Origin: a virus
Length of the DNA stretch: 64,000 nt
Strand: one strand, 5' to 3'
IMG/VR virus record: IMGVR_UViG_3300044568_004364
In this document: positions 10,974 through 61,005 of the stretch, in pieces
Position numbering within the stretch: the first letter of the stretch is position 1
Layout: each line of letters begins with the position of its first letter
Made by a program: the position numbers and the translations under genes
Notes under the pieces: generated by a model
Told to the model about the DNA's origin: nothing
What the model saw: only the letters and a program-made list of their open reading frames with translations
Databases searched by the model: none

Positions 10974-11915
10974 CTATAGTGATTTTGCCGCAAATTCAAT
11001 AGCTCTAGCTGCTTCAACATCCATAGCACGGTTTTTATACCATGAACCTGTCTCAGCATCTATTTCGCTGCATAATGATGATATCTCGGATGCGGAGATA
11101 GGATAACCGCGGCGCATTGCATTGCCAGCAATACTTATCATGATTTGATACATCTTGGTGTACCATCCGCTATTTTGAATCGTCTTATATTCGTTAATCA
11201 TATTCATATTTACAAACGGACAATCATAATATGAATTCCAGCTGTATGAGCGATTGTTTAATGCGCCTAGGCGACGCGCCTCAACCTTGCGCTTGAGGTC
11301 ATCGGGCAGCTTGTCAAATAACCGTGAACCAACATGCGCTTGTATATACTCATGCTTAGTCATTAGCTCATATGGATCTAATAGCGGAGAGTCTCGATGC
11401 GAAAAGATAAAGTGATTTGAATCTGGATAACGAGCTGGCACATAATACATACGTGACAGGTCTTTTGTTTGTGGATCAGATAGCGAATTGTATTGCTTGT
11501 TAAGAGCATACCAAAAGTGTCGGATCTTATCTGCTGGTACTTCACACTGGAGTGGAATCACAATACGAAACTTAGGATGTTCTAGTGTACTGCTTGCAGA
11601 TGAATAACACACAAAGCGTGTATCTTTAAATACCTGCACCGCTTCTTCAAATGTGCCAGAGTAATCATCGACATCAAGTGCAGCCCATCCGCCCCAGCAT
11701 GTTACATTTGCATTCTTTCGTGTTTCGCCTTCAGCAAATAGCGCCGGTGAGATTAGTGGTGAACCTTTACGCCATTCGCCTTTTTTAGGTTTATACCCAG
11801 GCTGTTTACTTAAGCTATATAGTAAATCTTCAAATGCATCAAAGGAGTCAAACTCCATGCGACGATGAGTCTTATTGTCAAAGATATTATTAAAAATTGT
11901 AAAACTATATTTCAT
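10974..11915 (-). CDS. AEP/PrimPol-like primase
   Basis: R...NV..W...ALDVDD, YSSAS...PKFRIVIPL, DPQTKDLSRMYYVP motifs. Confidence 0.75.
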   Translation of the reverse strand: MKYSFTIFNNIFDNKTHRRMEFDSFDAFEDLLYSLSKQPGYKPKKGEWRKGSPLISPALFAEGETRKNANVTCWGGWAALDVDDYSGTFEEAVQVFKDTRFVCYSSASSTLEHPKFRIVIPLQCEVPADKIRHFWYALNKQYNSLSDPQTKDLSRMYYVPARYPDSNHFIFSHRDSPLLDPYELMTKHEYIQAHVGSRLFDKLPDDLKRKVEARRLGALNNRSYSWNSYYDCPFVNMNMINEYKTIQNSGWYTKMYQIMISIAGNAMRRGYPISASEISSLCSEIDAETGSWYKNRAMDVEAARAIEFAAKSL

Positions 11916-12595
11916 GCAATTGTGTTTAATGTCCCATGATTACCAGCGTGAGACGGCGCAGTCGAATTTTTGTATTCCGTTATGTCTAATGTAGTCCATT
12001 GGTGTTTATGTAGCATATGATTATATAAATTTCCGCCATCTAAAATTTTATCGCATTCAGCACATTTCCATTTTGGGACATATTTTTTTGGTTTTCTCAT
12101 TTTATTTTTACTTTCTTCTGAATGTTTTTTACCAAAAAAACCGTTATCTTCTCCACAGCTTTTTTTATGTCCTTTAATGAAAGGAGTTTGACCAGCATCG
12201 CAGTTTATTTTTTGTTTAGCTGAAAGTAACTTCTTTGTTTCATCTGAATGTGTTTTTCCAAAAAATGGATGTTCAGCACCGCATACACTTCTGCCAAACC
12301 AACCATTAGGACATGCTAATGACATATTCATATAACGATTGGATTTTACGACGTCATATTTTTTATGTAGGTATAATTCATTCATGATTGCTTCTTTTCG
12401 AGTTTCGTATATTTTCAATATACGTGTTTTAAACAAATGTTTATTTTCTAATTGTTCTGCTTTAAAAATATCTTTATATTTTTTTGACTTTATTGATCCG
12501 TTATAACCAAAAGAAATTTTTTCAATTGAAGTAGATCCAATATAACGACGTGGTAATTTAGTTCCAAAGTAAATTGTTAAGTAAGTGCAATACAT
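11912..12595 (-). CDS. Free-standing GIY-YIG (Seg-like) homing endonuclease with NUMOD3 repeats
   Basis: CTYLT...YIGS...GYNGS; HPFFGKTHSDETKK and NGFFGKKHSEESK repeats; C-terminal CxxC; late promoter at 12605-12612. Confidence 0.85.
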   Translation of the reverse strand: MYCTYLTIYFGTKLPRRYIGSTSIEKISFGYNGSIKSKKYKDIFKAEQLENKHLFKTRILKIYETRKEAIMNELYLHKKYDVVKSNRYMNMSLACPNGWFGRSVCGAEHPFFGKTHSDETKKLLSAKQKINCDAGQTPFIKGHKKSCGEDNGFFGKKHSEESKNKMRKPKKYVPKWKCAECDKILDGGNLYNHMLHKHQWTTLDITEYKNSTAPSHAGNHGTLNTIA

Positions 12596-16208: not shown

Positions 16209-17123
16209 TTATTTATATTCAGGCAGCACGTATTCTTTAAAAGAAAGCAATTTTCTGCTGCTAATAATCTCAAAGAAGGTCTTGGCTTTTTCACCATTTA
16301 ACTTCTTATAGTCAAATTCTACTGCACTATAGATTGGACGATAGTGTAATGTGCGCTCTTTTGCAACGAGTAATAGCTGACCGGTTGTTACCATTTCAGC
16401 TTTACTAATATCGCCTGTACGCACAGGATTCATAAACTTATCTTTATGTGGCTTTTGCGACATCGCCTCAAGAAAAGCGTGCGGATCATTTATATCAGTA
16501 TCACGTAGGTAATTATTAACAATTTCCCAGCGTGTCTCTGAACTCTCGCGCGCAGCTTGTAAATGTGGATCGGTTGCATTTGCGCTATATCCTAAAGCTT
16601 TCATGTCAATGCCATGATTGGTACGTACACAATAGTTATCTTCTTTAGTAATTTCCTTTAAGCTGTAAATATACTTGCGGGGATTGTCTTCTGTGGCGTC
16701 ATCTTTCTTTACTGTAAATCCGCCTTCAAGCAGATAGCAACTCTCAGGATTAAAGATAAATGATGCACCAGCCAATTCCATTTCAATAAGGTATTGTGCT
16801 GCCTCCTTTGGAGTTTTTACACGAAGAGCATTGCGTATTGCAAGGCCATCAGGAGAAACAATAGCTTTCTTCTTTTTATTTTTAGACAACATCTTTTCAC
16901 CTTCTTTTTCATCGCTCTTAACGCTAAAAGATGCTGAGATAATAGATAAACCATATTCGTTTACACCTTCGGTCCAACGAGTAGTTTGATCATCAATAAA
17001 GAGGCGTTGAATGCCATCACGGTTTGAGTTAACAATTTTAATTGCTGTTGGGTAGTTGCGGTCACGATTTTTCGCACCAACCCAACCATACTTATTAATG
17101 TATTTTACTGCTACTACGCACAT
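16209..17123 (-). CDS. Ntn-hydrolase-like protein (N-terminal Cys nucleophile)
   Basis: MCVV...AKNRDR, EGVNEYGL, VRTNHG; late promoter at 17142-17149. Confidence 0.65.
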   Translation of the reverse strand: MCVVAVKYINKYGWVGAKNRDRNYPTAIKIVNSNRDGIQRLFIDDQTTRWTEGVNEYGLSIISASFSVKSDEKEGEKMLSKNKKKKAIVSPDGLAIRNALRVKTPKEAAQYLIEMELAGASFIFNPESCYLLEGGFTVKKDDATEDNPRKYIYSLKEITKEDNYCVRTNHGIDMKALGYSANATDPHLQAARESSETRWEIVNNYLRDTDINDPHAFLEAMSQKPHKDKFMNPVRTGDISKAEMVTTGQLLLVAKERTLHYRPIYSAVEFDYKKLNGEKAKTFFEIISSRKLLSFKEYVLPEYK

Positions 17124-40073: not shown

Positions 40074-41465
40074 TTACAAGCCTTTCCACTCGTTAATTGA
40101 TTCCATTTGCTCTCTATAATGAGCCATGCTAGGCGTAAGATCATTTTCATTATGAGAATTAATAATACCAAACGGCGGTAAGTCATCCTCCATCTCTCGT
40201 ATCTTTTCGCTATAGAGCAAGTCTTTAAGCTGTATATTACTCATGCCACCAAATGCGTCGGTGCTAACAAACCATGCAAACATAACAAGGTTCATTACGC
40301 TATCATCATGTGCAATGCCGCGTGCCGCATAACTATCTCCTTTTGGCTCAAAGCTGCTAAGTTCTGCAATTGTATTTGCATCGTATATCATTAACTTACC
40401 TTGCTCAATCAAGTCTTTTAGATTGCTGCAACCAATACGTTTAACTCGTTTGGTCATAGTGACACCAATGCCACTACTCTTTATACTGCTTTGCACAAAG
40501 ACGTTATCATATTCGTAATCATAATATATCGCATTACATACAACTTGTCCTGCATCGTTATTTTCAACAACCACAAGTGCATTACCGTATGACTTAGCAG
40601 CACGTATAATATATTCTGGGTACATTAACGGCGATACATTGTTATTACGATATGTACACACCTGCTTAAATGTTTCGCCAGAAATATCAAATACAGAAAA
40701 TGTACTATAGTCCTGCCCACGCCCTTTGCTTACATCTACCGTCAAGATATAGTCATGACCTTCAATAGGTTGCTCATAGTAGAGTATATCATATTGATTA
40801 CGTATCGGATCACGCGCTTGTAATCCAAGAAGCGCATCAGATGATATAAGTGTCTGCGAACTACCGATAAAAGAAACTTCAAACTCTTGCTTAAATTGTA
40901 ATTCACTGCTATTGGCAATAGTCTGACGCTTCCATGCTTCATCACGCCCAGGTACATCTTGCCATTTAATCGTGAATGGTTTAAATTCATTTGAACGTTG
41001 AATTGCACCTTCCCATAATTTATAGAACATATTGCCTACACCATTAGGTGTACTTGTAATAATAACCTTTGTATCTTTACCAGAACTAATTACAGGATAT
41101 GTACTCGTATAAAATTCATTTGCTTTATGCACAAACGCGAACTCATCAAGAAAGATACAATTATGACTGACTACACTGTTGGTATAATACGCATGTGTAT
41201 CTTCTACCTCTAATAAGTCATATACCTTTTCAGATTTAACATTTCTAATATCGATGATTTTAATATCACCAAATAATATATCCCCAACATTTAGAAATGA
41301 ACATGGTATGTAAGTAAATCCATCCTGACATAAAAATTCATGTTCAGGTGTACATTTAATATGTTCGCCATTATCAAATTGTACGAATAATAATTTTTCA
41401 GCTATCCCTTGGTCAAGTATAGCTTCAAATTTTTTAAATCCATTATGTGTTAAAACTTCAATCAT
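40074..41465 (-). CDS. 17: Terminase large subunit, C-terminal part: 102-aa C-intein followed by Walker B and nuclease domains
   Basis: ...VYDL...YYTNSVVSHN/CIFLDEFAFV; ITSTPNG; DVSKGRGQDYS; HDD.VM. Confidence 0.93.
   Translation of the reverse strand: MIEVLTHNGFKKFEAILDQGIAEKLLFVQFDNGEHIKCTPEHEFLCQDGFTYIPCSFLNVGDILFGDIKIIDIRNVKSEKVYDLLEVEDTHAYYTNSVVSHNCIFLDEFAFVHKANEFYTSTYPVISSGKDTKVIITSTPNGVGNMFYKLWEGAIQRSNEFKPFTIKWQDVPGRDEAWKRQTIANSSELQFKQEFEVSFIGSSQTLISSDALLGLQARDPIRNQYDILYYEQPIEGHDYILTVDVSKGRGQDYSTFSVFDISGETFKQVCTYRNNNVSPLMYPEYIIRAAKSYGNALVVVENNDAGQVVCNAIYYDYEYDNVFVQSSIKSSGIGVTMTKRVKRIGCSNLKDLIEQGKLMIYDANTIAELSSFEPKGDSYAARGIAHDDSVMNLVMFAWFVSTDAFGGMSNIQLKDLLYSEKIREMEDDLPPFGIINSHNENDLTPSMAHYREQMESINEWKGL
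41160..41465 (-). mobile_element. Split intein 2, C-fragment (102 aa)
   Basis: IKCTPEHEF (block B TxxH), KVYDLLEVED (block F), SHN/C (block G). Confidence 0.88.
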
Positions 41466-42403
41466 ATTTTAGTGCGATTAACCCATTTTTCAGGTTGTTC
41501 ACCTATATTAAAATAACCACGTTCAGATGTGTTTTCTGGATTAACATAATATTTTTTACCTTTATTTTTTGCAGATTTACCCTTTTTTGCCGATGACATT
41601 TTTAATTTACAATCATCGCTTCTTGTCATACCGCGATGTTTTTCTGCAGTCTTTTTAATTTTTTCAGGATTTTTATTAATCTTATCAACATGCTCTTTTG
41701 ATTTTTTAATACCCGTCAAACCAGCACTTATATTATTACAATGTTCTTTTGTTTTCTTTACTCCTTTTAATTTTTCTGATATGATTTTACCGGTTGCTTT
41801 TCTAGTGTCGGGTAATGAAGCAATCATTTGTATGCGTTTCATATAAACATTCACTGCCGCTTGTTGATCATCAGTATCAACAAATTTAATTGGCTTTTCA
41901 GAGTTACCGCAATCGCATATTAATTTAATTCTAGCAGCATAGTTATTTGTATCTTCATCATAACCTAATTTGTTTATTGCATCTTCCAGTGTTTCAAAAA
42001 TGCGGCCATCATCATGAATAATTTTTTTACCAGTCCCAGAATGTTTTCCAACTTTAGCTTCACGTAATTTTTCTTTTGTTTCTTTGGAGTGTGTCTTACC
42101 GTAAAAGCCATTATTTGGGCCGTGTAATACTAGTATGTTTCCGCCTTCCGAAAGATTATATGTATCTTCACGCAAGGTAAAATCTTTATTAACAATACGT
42201 CTTTCTTCATTTTCTGCATCAGCTTTATTATCAAAAACTGATAATATTTCTTTTTTAAAATTAGCGATGCCATACTTTTCTATAGCTCTTTTTATAAGTT
42301 TACCACTGCCCATATAGCCATCATTTAAATCATTAGTTGCATGATAGCCAACATAAATTTTATTGTTTATTAGATTTGTTATTTTATAGACAGTGTAATG
42401 CAT
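41462..42403 (-). mobile_element. GIY-YIG homing endonuclease (313 aa) between the halves of split intein 2
   Basis: MHYTVYKITNLINNKIYVGYH...DGYMGSG...YG..NFKKEIL...YNL..GG; NUMOD3 repeats; TATAAATA at 42430-42437. Confidence 0.88.
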
Positions 42404-44341
42404 AATTTCTTTCTCGATGAATTTACTTTTATTTATAAAATCATCAATTTCAGCATAGTAAATATTATCATTTATGTTAACACAAATCTTAGCATCTCCA
42501 GTGACACAATTCATACTCAAGCCACGAATGCTGCTACCGCTTGTGGCTGCCGCAATAATTTCGCTGTTATTACTAAAGAGTATGTTACCTTTATTTAATA
42601 CCTTACACCCAGGCTGTAGGAAGAATGGTAAGTTTTCCAACATCAGCGTAATACGTGATAACATCTCACGTGCCGTTGCACCTTTGTTTGCAAGTATACC
42701 TATCTTTTTATTTGCGTTAAAGATTGCATAATGAAGGAGCCATGCGACACTTGTAATCGAATTGTGTGACAGAATATCGTTTGTGTAAAATCGGTGATCA
42801 GTAAAATCTACCCCAAGATCATACATCTCAACCTCTTTACCACATCTCTGAACTCCAACAACTTTGGAACACCCATCTTTTGTTTGTATAACAGATCCTT
42901 CTTTTAAATCTTTAACATAGACATTATCAAATTCTTCATTAAATAAAATATGGTTATCAGCACAGCGTAGATATTTCCCGCATTCTGTTTTTACCTCCCA
43001 GATGGTATATGGTATAGTTTTATGCGATTGTTTTAAAGGTTGAAATCCGCTATCAGTTTCAACCACGAAGCCGAAGCCCTCGAAGGATTCTATGAATTTT
43101 TTAGTTGATGGCAGTTGTCGAAATGCCACCTCGACATCGCTGATGGATCTCCGATCTTTCCGCAGTGCGGACACTGTGCCTTCTTTCTTTTTCTCGCCAT
43201 GCTTTTTATATTTTCTATATGTTCCTTCGTAAACTTCCTCCCTTTGAGACGTTCTGAAAGTTTGTTCTTTGTTTCCGCTGATGTTACCTTCCCCTTTCCA
43301 GCCTTTGAGAGTTTCTTCTTCGTTTCCTCGGATGTTACCCTTCCCGTGTTCGGTGATACATAATCCGGATCCGCGTGAAGTTTCCTCAGGCCTTTTGATA
43401 TATTTTCTTTGTGTTCCTCGGATTGAGCGTATCCACGTAATGACTCTGAATTTGTTTTCCGGTTTTTCATCCTCTCCCGAAACTTTGTCTCCCCCCAAAT
43501 AGATTTTATTTTCTTGGAGATATTCTTTTTGGATTCTTCCGAATGATTTTTGTTTAGCATGCCCCTTGGATGAACCTCGTGAGTTTTTCCATAAAAGGGA
43601 TTTTTCTCTCCACTGTTTTCCTCCGATAAAACATTTATGAAGTTGGTTCGAGCATTTTCGTATAAACGTGAGGATTTTATTTTTATGCCATCTCGTGTGT
43701 GCATCATCATGTGAAGGGCATAAACCATCTTCTTCCATTCTGGGCTGCACTTTGGAAACATCTTCACTAATAAAAGATGAGCGATAAAATGCTCTCTTAA
43801 AGTTAATGTCACTAGGTTCTCTTCTAAATTGTTTCCACCACACCCTTTTGGAAAAATATGATGCCTCTCCCCAGAGTTTAACAAACAGCGCTTGCGCTTC
43901 TCCATCAGGCAAAAATAGGTCTTTGAATACTTGTTCTTTAGGCAGGTCATGTTTATATTTATAAAACAATGACTTCTGAAGCGTACTTAATGCATAAAAT
44001 ATTTCGTGAACTAGTGATATTTTTGCTCGCAACGGAGGGCCATCAAGAAACTTGATGGTAATCTCTGTTTCCCCGACACTGCATTTCCCGCTTTGGCGAC
44101 ATGCAAGGATAATGGTAAAACGATTATCCGAAAAATGTTTTACCATTTTTTCTTGATAACCGCGCAGCTTAAATGGCACTAGTCCATGATCTAAGCTAAT
44201 AACCTTTACGTACTTTTCGGCAAAGTAACCTACATCAGCCATGCAGCGACGATATTCATTAACTTCATGCGCCGTGAAACTTTGCTGTACACCATCACGC
44301 TTGATATAAATGTTTCCATTATAGGAATCTGGTGTTGTCAT
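41462..44341 (-). CDS. 17: Terminase large subunit, N-terminal part, with cis intein 1, N-intein 2 and an in-frame GIY-YIG endonuclease
   Basis: YNGN..IKR, YFAEKYVK, GLVPF.L..YQ, CRQSGK/(intein)/SITS, ILANKG.TARE, LP.FLQPG, SIRGLSMN. Confidence 0.93.
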   Translation of the reverse strand: MTTPDSYNGNIYIKRDGVQQSFTAHEVNEYRRCMADVGYFAEKYVKVISLDHGLVPFKLRGYQEKMVKHFSDNRFTIILACRQSGKCSVGETEITIKFLDGPPLRAKISLVHEIFYALSTLQKSLFYKYKHDLPKEQVFKDLFLPDGEAQALFVKLWGEASYFSKRVWWKQFRREPSDINFKRAFYRSSFISEDVSKVQPRMEEDGLCPSHDDAHTRWHKNKILTFIRKCSNQLHKCFIGGKQWREKSLLWKNSRGSSKGHAKQKSFGRIQKEYLQENKIYLGGDKVSGEDEKPENKFRVITWIRSIRGTQRKYIKRPEETSRGSGLCITEHGKGNIRGNEEETLKGWKGEGNISGNKEQTFRTSQREEVYEGTYRKYKKHGEKKKEGTVSALRKDRRSISDVEVAFRQLPSTKKFIESFEGFGFVVETDSGFQPLKQSHKTIPYTIWEVKTECGKYLRCADNHILFNEEFDNVYVKDLKEGSVIQTKDGCSKVVGVQRCGKEVEMYDLGVDFTDHRFYTNDILSHNSITSVAWLLHYAIFNANKKIGILANKGATAREMLSRITLMLENLPFFLQPGCKVLNKGNILFSNNSEIIAAATSGSSIRGLSMNCVTGDAKICVNINDNIYYAEIDDFINKSKFIEKEIMHYTVYKITNLINNKIYVGYHATNDLNDGYMGSGKLIKRAIEKYGIANFKKEILSVFDNKADAENEERRIVNKDFTLREDTYNLSEGGNILVLHGPNNGFYGKTHSKETKEKLREAKVGKHSGTGKKIIHDDGRIFETLEDAINKLGYDEDTNNYAARIKLICDCGNSEKPIKFVDTDDQQAAVNVYMKRIQMIASLPDTRKATGKIISEKLKGVKKTKEHCNNISAGLTGIKKSKEHVDKINKNPEKIKKTAEKHRGMTRSDDCKLKMSSAKKGKSAKNKGKKYYVNPENTSERGYFNIGEQPEKWVNRTKI
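42404..42508 (-). mobile_element. Split intein 2, short N-fragment (about 35 aa)
   Basis: CVTGDAKICV...EIDDF block A directly after extein GLSMN. Confidence 0.82.
42761..44083 (-). mobile_element. Intein 1 (441 aa) in the terminase Walker A motif
   Basis: K/CSVGETEI start; LRCADNHIL block B; EMYDLGV block F; FYTNDILSHN/S end; excision restores RQSGKS. Confidence 0.9.
43090..43950 (-). CDS. HNH (Mob-like) homing endonuclease nested out of frame within intein 1
   Basis: ERHHIFPKGCGG...NLV.LT.REHFIAHLLL; NPFYGKTH/HSEESKK NUMOD3 repeats; CPHC...RWHFDNC; TATAAATA at 43956-43963. Confidence 0.88.
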   Translation of the reverse strand: MTCLKNKYSKTYFCLMEKRKRCLLNSGERHHIFPKGCGGNNLEENLVTLTLREHFIAHLLLVKMFPKCSPEWKKMVYALHMMMHTRDGIKIKSSRLYENARTNFINVLSEENSGEKNPFYGKTHEVHPRGMLNKNHSEESKKNISKKIKSIWGETKFRERMKNRKTNSESLRGYAQSEEHKENISKGLRKLHADPDYVSPNTGRVTSEETKKKLSKAGKGKVTSAETKNKLSERLKGRKFTKEHIENIKSMARKRKKAQCPHCGKIGDPSAMSRWHFDNCHQLKNS

Positions 44342-59756: not shown

Positions 59757-60986
59757 TTAACCAAACACTACAATGTCAACTCTAGGAGAATCGAATGCAC
59801 CACCATCCGAACCTCGTAGTGTACGTATTCTCACCGCTGATATTGTCGGTGCAATTGTTTGATGCCGTGTTACAACGCCGCCTGTGCTTGCATCTGTTCT
59901 TTGAGCTGTGCCAGTAACAATATAATTGGTATTTGCAAAGTTTGCAGTAAAATTAATTGTATAGTCGCCTGTGCCGTTATCTGTTATGCTGCTTACATTA
60001 TAGCTGCCTATGATAGCTGGTGTGTCTGTGCCGTTAAATGACACCCATGCCTTTGCAGCACCCGGTGAACTCTTTAATGTTGCTGGTGTTACTGCACGTG
60101 CAGTGTCGCTACCAGTATCTACTTCACCTTGCGTAGCAAGTTCAACTTTTCCAGCAGCACTCGTTGTTGCCTGTGCGGATGTTGTGGTTATGGTTACATC
60201 AGCACTGCCATTAAAACTTACAGAGCCCGCAACATCACCGCTTAAAGTAATTGTTCTTGCAGTTGCTAATATCGTTGCAGTGCTAGCATTTCCAGTTAGC
60301 GGTCCACTAAATGACGTTGCAGTTAATATGCCACCACTATCCCAATTTGGGCCGCCTGTGGATAACTTTGCTGGAGTGACCGCAAGATTGATTATTTTAG
60401 CAGTGGTGACAGCGTTATTACCAACCGTTGTGGTTATGCCTACATCAGCACCACCATTAAAACTTACAGAGCCACCAACATCACCGCTTAAAGTAATTGT
60501 TCTTGCAGTTGCTAATGTCGTTGCAGTGCTAGCGTTTCCAGTCAATGGGCCGCTAAATGATGTCGCACTTAATACGCCGCCGCTATTCCAACTTGGACCA
60601 CCTGTGGATAACTTTGCTGGAGTGACTGCAAGATTATTTATCTTACCTGTAGTAATAGCATCAGGACTTATTGTAATTGCAAGTGTTACTGGACTAGTCC
60701 CATTAAACGTTGGTGGCGAAACTATTGATACTGCATCACCAGATACATTAAATGCACGTGGTGTTGTTAAACTTTCAGCAGTTGAAATAACAATAGCTGA
60801 TGATGTTAGCAAAACTGTAGCACTTGTCGCAGGATCTGTAAATCGTATATTGTTATTACCGTTTTCAAAAGCAGCATTTAAAGTTGAGCTGCTACCCAAA
60901 CCCAATCTTCCTCGCATTGTAGCCGATTCAGCTGTTACTGGAGTATTTACTGCGGAAGGTCCTAAATTAATTGGCGTAGTTGGCAT
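59757..60986 (-). CDS. Tail fibre protein with an internal ~82-aa tandem duplication
   Basis: Two copies of NLAVTPAKLSTGGP...ATARTITLSGDV.GSVSFNG (246-bp period); AKAWVSFNG...YNVSSITDNGTGDY. Confidence 0.8.
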   Translation of the reverse strand: MPTTPINLGPSAVNTPVTAESATMRGRLGLGSSSTLNAAFENGNNNIRFTDPATSATVLLTSSAIVISTAESLTTPRAFNVSGDAVSIVSPPTFNGTSPVTLAITISPDAITTGKINNLAVTPAKLSTGGPSWNSGGVLSATSFSGPLTGNASTATTLATARTITLSGDVGGSVSFNGGADVGITTTVGNNAVTTAKIINLAVTPAKLSTGGPNWDSGGILTATSFSGPLTGNASTATILATARTITLSGDVAGSVSFNGSADVTITTTSAQATTSAAGKVELATQGEVDTGSDTARAVTPATLKSSPGAAKAWVSFNGTDTPAIIGSYNVSSITDNGTGDYTINFTANFANTNYIVTGTAQRTDASTGGVVTRHQTIAPTISAVRIRTLRGSDGGAFDSPRVDIVVFG

Positions 60987-61005
60987 TGTGTTATTTTGTT
61001 AAGGT

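Follow-up and report, generated by a model that had tools for sequence, protein, structure and literature searches.

The intein in the TerL terminase protein of Brucella phages Tb and Pr (Perisivirus) harbours an HNH gene that lies out of frame, which has been mentioned in passing (PMC4422536, 2015; GenBank JN939331 ORF07/ORF08). Gosselin, Arsenault and Gogarten described full inteins of actinobacteriophages, many of them in TerL, that carry the endonuclease in another frame or strand (bioRxiv 10.1101/2025.01.02.630785). Dassa et al. 2009 (PMC2677866) put forward a model in which an endonuclease gene invades an intein and the outcome is splitting or in-frame fusion, and they also described hairpins for endonuclease genes in fractured loci. 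Hidden HNH genes are also known from phage methylases without an intein, as in the ShiLan insertion (Arsenault et al. 2025, PMC11855218). Here we analyse intein 1 of the terL gene in IMG/VR record IMGVR_UViG_3300044568_004364, a stretch of 64,000 nucleotides (nt) referred to as the window, in which an HNH endonuclease gene is read in the +1 frame inside an intein whose own frame stays open. We consider it highly probable that this is a mobile intein with its homing endonuclease encoded as a separate gene that overlaps the intein coding sequence.

The window is a portion of a T4-like phage genome in which the small terminase, terL, tail sheath, portal region and major head protein follow one another on the minus strand, where all features described below lie unless stated otherwise. 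The closest cultured TerL is that of a Kyanoviridae phage (56%). terL consists of two open reading frames (ORFs), 44341-41462 and 41465-40074. The first (41462-44341, 959 amino acids) runs from the N-extein through intein 1 and the middle extein into a fusion of a GIY-YIG endonuclease with the N-half of intein 2, which is split. Ten independently sourced contigs (NCBI, JGI and Logan) carry the identical 959-residue protein, and the intein 1 region is base-identical between two Logan contigs; the layout is therefore real and not an artefact of assembly.

Intein 1 spans C87-N527 (42761-44083; 441 amino acids, C1...H440 N441 with a +1 Ser), is contiguous, with no stop in its 441 codons, and is flanked by RQSGK/C and HN/S. 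The HNH gene (43090-43950, 286 amino acids) lies wholly within it, offset by 391 nt from the terL ORF (+1 frame) and covering residues 131-418 of that ORF; its TAG falls within the conserved KFIES codons of the C-terminal splicing segment. The predicted product is an HNH-NUMOD3-Zn-ribbon homing endonuclease (PHROG 655, homing endonuclease, E = 2e-43) with NUMOD3 repeats in four stretches (PF07460, E = 6e-14), and its ATG lines up with where free-standing relatives naturally start. The assignment to HNH rests on sequence motifs and profiles: the metal-site residues E28, H30, H31, N41, N45, H54 and H58 are invariant in 12 relatives, the profile gives weak matches to McrA and Cas8-HNH (E about 0.001-0.003) and the relatives match Pfam HNH below the cut-off. 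An initial annotation, made from the letters alone, had placed the intein in the terminase Walker A motif, a complete HNH-NUMOD3-Zn-finger endonuclease in the +1 frame and a late promoter 5 nt before its ATG; coordinates, flanks and profile matches bear out all three. It had also called the overlap AT-rich, which needs a small correction: the DNA of the HNH gene is 40.7% G+C, slightly higher than its neighbours, a value in keeping with the removal of T from third positions.

Across the HNH gene, the terL frame contains no stops and the third sense frame 25. When synonymous codons were permuted within the HNH gene, 15.1 ± 2.5 terL-frame stops appeared, with a minimum of 4 in 100,000 permutations (p below 1e-5), and resampling codons with the phage's own usage gave 36 ± 4 (minimum 19). 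The suspicion that a stop-free double frame is very unlikely by chance was thus well founded. A terL-frame stop requires an HNH codon that ends in T ahead of AA, AG or GA. At such stop-risk positions, none of the 73 HNH codons able to end in T does so, compared with 60 of 128 elsewhere (Fisher p = 3e-15). Among 77 non-identical related HNH ORFs, seven have no stops in this frame, one has 7 and the remaining 69 have 15-57; all seven without stops lie inside TerL inteins. As a control, related HNH genes between split UvsX/RecA-type intein halves carry 28-42 stops, matching the chance expectation.

Hidden +1 HNH genes occupy the same Walker A site in four other lineages (L001, L192, L237, L290 and the partial L296). 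All five of these relatives keep the intein frame open, with no stops in each against 11.5-15.4 expected. Their HNH proteins are 42-47% identical to that of the window, and identity between the main lineages is 42-49%. L001 and L192 differ at 81 intein positions, and for this pair the ratio of non-synonymous to synonymous substitution rates (dN/dS) in the HNH frame is 0.13. In the shadow frame, meaning the terL frame across the HNH gene, it is 1.48. Third-position changes involving T occurred at none of 88 stop-risk codons compared with 12 of 165 others (p = 0.01). Together, these values argue for selection on the nuclease and against stops, rather than on the shadow peptide. They agree with the earlier proposal that selection purged shadow-frame stops, and on these measures selection acts on the nuclease as a protein, and on the terL frame across it only to keep it open.

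The shadow peptide (43103-43951, ~283 residues) appears unconstrained in sequence besides its lack of stops and is mostly predicted to be disordered. The initial annotation had seen no recognisable motif in the middle ~287 codons of the intein, and a Pfam search with this in-frame region also returned no match. In an AlphaFold model the predicted local confidence (pLDDT) is below 50 across most of residues 101-325. A functional shadow protein was considered and rejected on the dN/dS of 1.48.

The two splicing segments surround this region. The N-terminal segment (43952-44083, 44 codons) also holds the expression signals of the HNH gene, and the C-terminal segment (42761-43102) reads KFIES...CADNH...MYDLGV...SHN. 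All residues of a class 1 intein are present, namely C1, block B H378 (in CADNH, family-wide), block F D422, H440, N441 and the +1 Ser, and they are invariant in an alignment with relatives. In the AlphaFold model, residues 1-40 and 330-441 form one confident domain (pLDDT mostly above 90), for which Foldseek returned VidaL (6vgv) as the best match (E = 1e-9, root mean square deviation 0.9), along with gp41-1 (E = 1e-8). The models support a class 1 intein with a HINT fold built around an insert that is disordered. The insertion is precise when compared with empty alleles: L111-L129 read GK/S with no insert, and the N-extein (44084-44341, residues 1-86), which ends in the Walker A sequence RQSGK, continues as RQSGK/SIT without an insert in intein-free relatives. 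The middle extein covers residues 528-611 (42509-42760), and the second terL ORF (40074-41465) encodes the C-half of split intein 2 (41465-41160) and the C-extein, from its own ATG that overlaps the stop of the first ORF. Summed, the three exteins come to 531 amino acids, compared with 535 for the intein-free TerL of C48C1. Splicing of intein 1 is very likely, because the ATP-binding loop of an essential enzyme would otherwise be interrupted.

Splicing might also, or mainly, proceed in trans, with the C-terminal segment made from an internal start (for example GTG 43129 or 43174) and the read-through product serving as a back-up precursor. In-frame GTG codons do lie immediately 5' of the C-segment, 48 of 59 classifiable relatives are split at this same place, and L258, which has a Vsr-like gene in an open frame, retains the typical split-intein start motif MSELSESVERKF. 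However, the absence of stops in five lineages makes read-through a requirement, the window, L001 and L237 lack the motif with which split C-halves start (M-x-LS[DE]xVxRKF), and the GTG codons have no Shine-Dalgarno sequence at the usual distance. We regard splicing of this sort as improbable.

The nuclease gene has signals of its own. A T4-type late promoter, TATAAATA (43956-43963), lies 5 nt 5' of the HNH ATG and predicts a nearly leaderless mRNA. The window contains 19 copies of this sequence, all on the coding strand and most immediately 5' of starts; five other window genes share a promoter-to-ATG spacing of 5-7 nt, so a nearly leaderless late mRNA is normal for this phage. TATAAATA is found 5' of the HNH gene in all relatives with a hidden HNH, at intein offset 92 in four related lineages and at 120 in the window. 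At the position where those four carry it, the window has ATTAAGTA (43984-43991, by offset alignment), probably a decayed older promoter. That the promoter relocated instead of vanishing suggests that HNH expression is selected. In a short predicted hairpin (43946-43973, -6.5 kcal/mol), which could form on the long terL mRNA only, the loop contains the promoter and the 3' arm contains the HNH AUG. Folding of the 100 nt around the window's HNH start gave no significant structure (z = -0.09); in L001 the promoter and Shine-Dalgarno sequence pair in a hairpin (z = -3.3).

These signals bear on the idea that the nuclease comes from a programmed +1 frameshift off the terL frame, or from re-initiation on the long mRNA, rather than from its own transcript. 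The +1 frame is open for ~12 codons 5' of the HNH ATG, and in the window that ATG lacks a Shine-Dalgarno sequence; both points speak for such a mechanism. Yet L001 and L290 do have Shine-Dalgarno sites, the late promoter precedes the HNH gene in all five lineages and was relocated rather than lost in the window, and its close spacing to the ATG is common in this phage, all of which make frameshifting or re-initiation very unlikely. An ATG of its own and a conserved if relocated promoter instead favour separate expression of the nuclease, as the initial annotation had suggested, and the gene is under purifying selection.

The distribution of the element points to mobility. In the protein cluster of L001, eight intein-free TerL alleles stand alongside intein-bearing ones, most of them with 6-13 differences from the L001 protein, and one with 36, across ~270-290 aligned residues. 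Between L001 and L192, dS is 0.18 in the intein C-segment and 0.50-0.78 in the flanking exteins. The N-extein of the window is 78-82% identical to those of intein-free phages and 42% identical to that of L001, in which the related intein is present. This patchy presence, the low C-segment dS and the N-extein identities fit homing; part of the patchy pattern can be put down to some alleles having lost the intein.

It is also conceivable that the HNH protein no longer homes and instead serves the phage, for example as a packaging cofactor or in excluding competing phages, or that the shadow peptide has a function of its own. In some cos phages, HNH proteins are reported to work with terminase (Kala et al. 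2014, as cited in PMC4422536); here, the gene is under purifying selection, and intein residues 61-80, at the start of the shadow peptide, are modelled with a pLDDT of ~92. Against this, the whole element is absent from close relatives, the protein has the nuclease-NUMOD3 layout of homing endonucleases and the shadow frame evolves at the high dN/dS noted above; we give such roles very little credence. An assembly error or a chance open frame has next to no probability, given the identical ORF on 10 contigs from several sources, the shuffling result and the five relatives with the same layout.

We return to the mobile intein with an overlapping nuclease gene. The two frames, the purging of stops, purifying selection on HNH, the conserved promoter and patchy presence in near-identical hosts emerge from comparison of the sequences themselves, and from them we infer splicing, separate translation, cleavage and homing. 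In the proposed course of events, terL mRNA would be read through the open shadow frame into a single precursor, in which the two splicing segments would form the HINT domain and the shadow peptide a mostly disordered loop; intein 1 would then be spliced out in cis, restoring the Walker A motif. TATAAATA at 43963 would, late in infection, give rise to a short mRNA that is nearly leaderless, on which the 286-residue HNH protein would be made from its own ATG, which on the long mRNA is probably concealed by the hairpin. During mixed infections the HNH protein would cut or nick intein-free terL at the Walker A site, and repair would copy the whole intein together with the endonuclease gene. A stop in the shadow frame would part the two intein halves, of which the C-half lacks any recognisable start signal to itself, so that stops would be purged while the shadow amino acids drift.

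Some observations weigh against this account. The dN/dS values derive from the relatives L001 and L192 and not from alleles of the window. In the window's own lineage, the closest intein-free alleles found are only ~80-90% identical; patchy presence among near-identical alleles is seen for relatives, in the L001 cluster, so that current homing in the window's lineage is conjectural. Fold searches with the HNH model returned nothing at E below 0.001, the best hits (Z up to 6.0) being unrelated helical proteins. The window's HNH hairpin is weak, with z = -2.3 on a chosen 38-nt stretch.

We placed intein 1 among its relatives using an unrooted tree of 148 columns. The 59 classifiable relatives comprise 40 split inteins with a free-standing, mostly Vsr-like nuclease gene between the halves, 8 split ones lacking a nuclease gene, 6 mini-inteins that are contiguous (mainly in Ackermannviridae TerL) and 5 inteins that are contiguous and hide a +1 gene. 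Those with a hidden HNH form one group with support of 99/91 in the careful tree; when the tree was built in a quicker and simpler way, the smallest set with strong support that held them included two other rows. Another contiguous TerL Walker A intein, L236:1415-2842, hides a +1 Vsr-like (DUF559-like) gene and has no stops against 14.5 expected. The open-frame layout of L236 is probably shared by L258:1-1170, which is truncated at its 5' end and has the frame open throughout. L236 falls apart from the hidden-HNH clade in the first tree, and an approximately unbiased test does not reject joining them (p = 0.56), so that a shared and a separate origin of the hidden-Vsr intein both fit these trees. 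No split member of the hidden-HNH clade was found among the relatives, all six members being contiguous, and a metagenome scan with a three-row intein alignment returned no further members. We also searched 45 split relatives for leftover depletion of shadow-frame stops: most match expectation, and five are 2-3 standard deviations below it, none of them near zero. Because there is neither a split member nor general stop depletion in split relatives, the hidden-HNH clade looks old and stable, not transitional. The initial annotation had proposed a possible intermediate between contiguous and split inteins; the clade may lie on the path to or from split inteins, in a direction that the unrooted tree does not give.

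Two further observations concern the split relatives. In many of those in the range L081-L289 (counts that ignore relatedness), the nuclease starts in +1 at nt 58-82, over the last codons of the N-half, and the two intein halves are often still in the same frame. In L005, L011 and L012, related HNH-NUMOD3 genes (~34-40% identity) lie between split-intein halves in a UvsX/RecA-type gene. From the +1 nuclease starts, the same-frame halves and the absence of stops in L236, we tentatively consider that hidden +1 nuclease inteins and split 'fractured' inteins could be interconvertible states of one family, a possibility we hold to be less likely than its negation. If true, the clade of the window would represent contiguous inteins that have persisted for long, whether as the forerunner of fractured genes or as a product of their re-fusion; nuclease and promoter would be swapped in it with the shadow frame remaining open, and the origin of naturally split inteins would become testable on a natural series.

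The second intein of the same gene (intein 2, 42508-41160, minus strand) is split, and its N-half continues in frame into a GIY-YIG-NUMOD3 endonuclease. This N-half (C612 onward, 35 amino acids, 42404-42508) holds a second TATAAATA at 42437-42430 in a hairpin loop (z = -4.7), and the endonuclease (41462-42403, 313 amino acids) has its own ATG (42403) in frame with the N-half. This nuclease gene conceals no open frame: its -1 frame contains 59 stops against 53 expected. Three other phages (L314:2501-3184, L348:250-948 and L357:2444-3265) have a contiguous intein with a hidden out-of-frame HNH at this second TerL site, which in the window is split. Comparison of window 41465-42403 with L314:2501-3184 suggests that nuclease domains have been exchanged on one common DNA-binding module for the second TerL site. 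Elsewhere in the window, a third endonuclease gene (11912-12595, minus strand; 227 amino acids, PHROG 10820/314) has TATAAATA 9 nt 5' of its ATG, and a copy of TATAAATA at 16217 (minus strand) has no ORF of at least 60 amino acids within 80 nt and possibly serves a small RNA or short gene. A 330-residue ORF at 60010-61002 (plus strand) runs antisense to a tail-fibre-like gene (59757-60986) and has no PHROG match.

The initial annotation had presented intein 1 as an undescribed third architecture. This did not stand, as the arrangement was already annotated in Brucella phage Tb and has been described as a class by Gosselin et al. Brucella Tb shares with the window a contiguous TerL intein and a complete same-strand HNH gene in the +1 frame, and when we checked it, the offset modulo 3 was 1 and no stops were present against 9.9 expected. 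Its intein, however, sits before the Walker B motif, whereas that of the window is in Walker A; the HNH proteins show no significant similarity (E = 0.15), only the C-terminal motif of the inteins aligns, and in this 41-kb Perisivirus no TATAAATA is found in the 70 nt 5' of the HNH start. The actinobacteriophage inteins resemble intein 1 in having an in-frame region without a recognisable fold, and the same origin is modelled, in which an intein is invaded by a free-standing endonuclease gene. Their nucleases, with families compared by description, are endonuclease VII-like (frame 3), antisense LAGLIDADG and antisense Vsr-like; the window differs in its sense +1 HNH-NUMOD3, its T4-like phages, its late promoter and its measured stop purging. 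Our literature search found no publication on the named atypical TerL inteins.

The fractured genes (Dassa 2009, PMC2677866; VidaL, Cat, gp41-1) contain closely related inteins, including at the TerL site. They are also alike in having an endonuclease gene between the halves, a T4 late promoter with a hairpin, and an endonuclease 3' end that overlaps the C-part of the intein. They differ in that the host frame is broken, splicing is in trans and the nucleases are mostly Vsr-like or GIY-YIG, whereas the frame in the window is open; the host gene is unbroken at the contiguous intein 1, and it is intein 2 of the same gene that is split. ShiLan, like the window, has an out-of-frame HNH, a host frame without stops and a proposed leaderless initiation, but it has no splicing domain and the insert remains in the host protein.

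The locus offers a clean example of dual coding: selection acts on the protein sequence of one frame and, in the other, just on its staying open. Gene callers give only the long ORF, so hidden nucleases are missed and such inteins would be misread as degenerate. The family includes the fast, atypically split inteins used in protein engineering, with VidaL and Cat the nearest solved relatives, and the occurrence of contiguous, split and hidden-nuclease forms at one site provides a test of split-intein origin. By sequence comparison, the element in the window has the same architecture as the published cases and belongs to a separate lineage. What it adds is a T4-like lineage at the Walker A site that forms a contiguous branch within a phage intein family whose members are mostly split, together with direct measures of selection in both frames, a relocated promoter and a natural series of architectures within one intein family.

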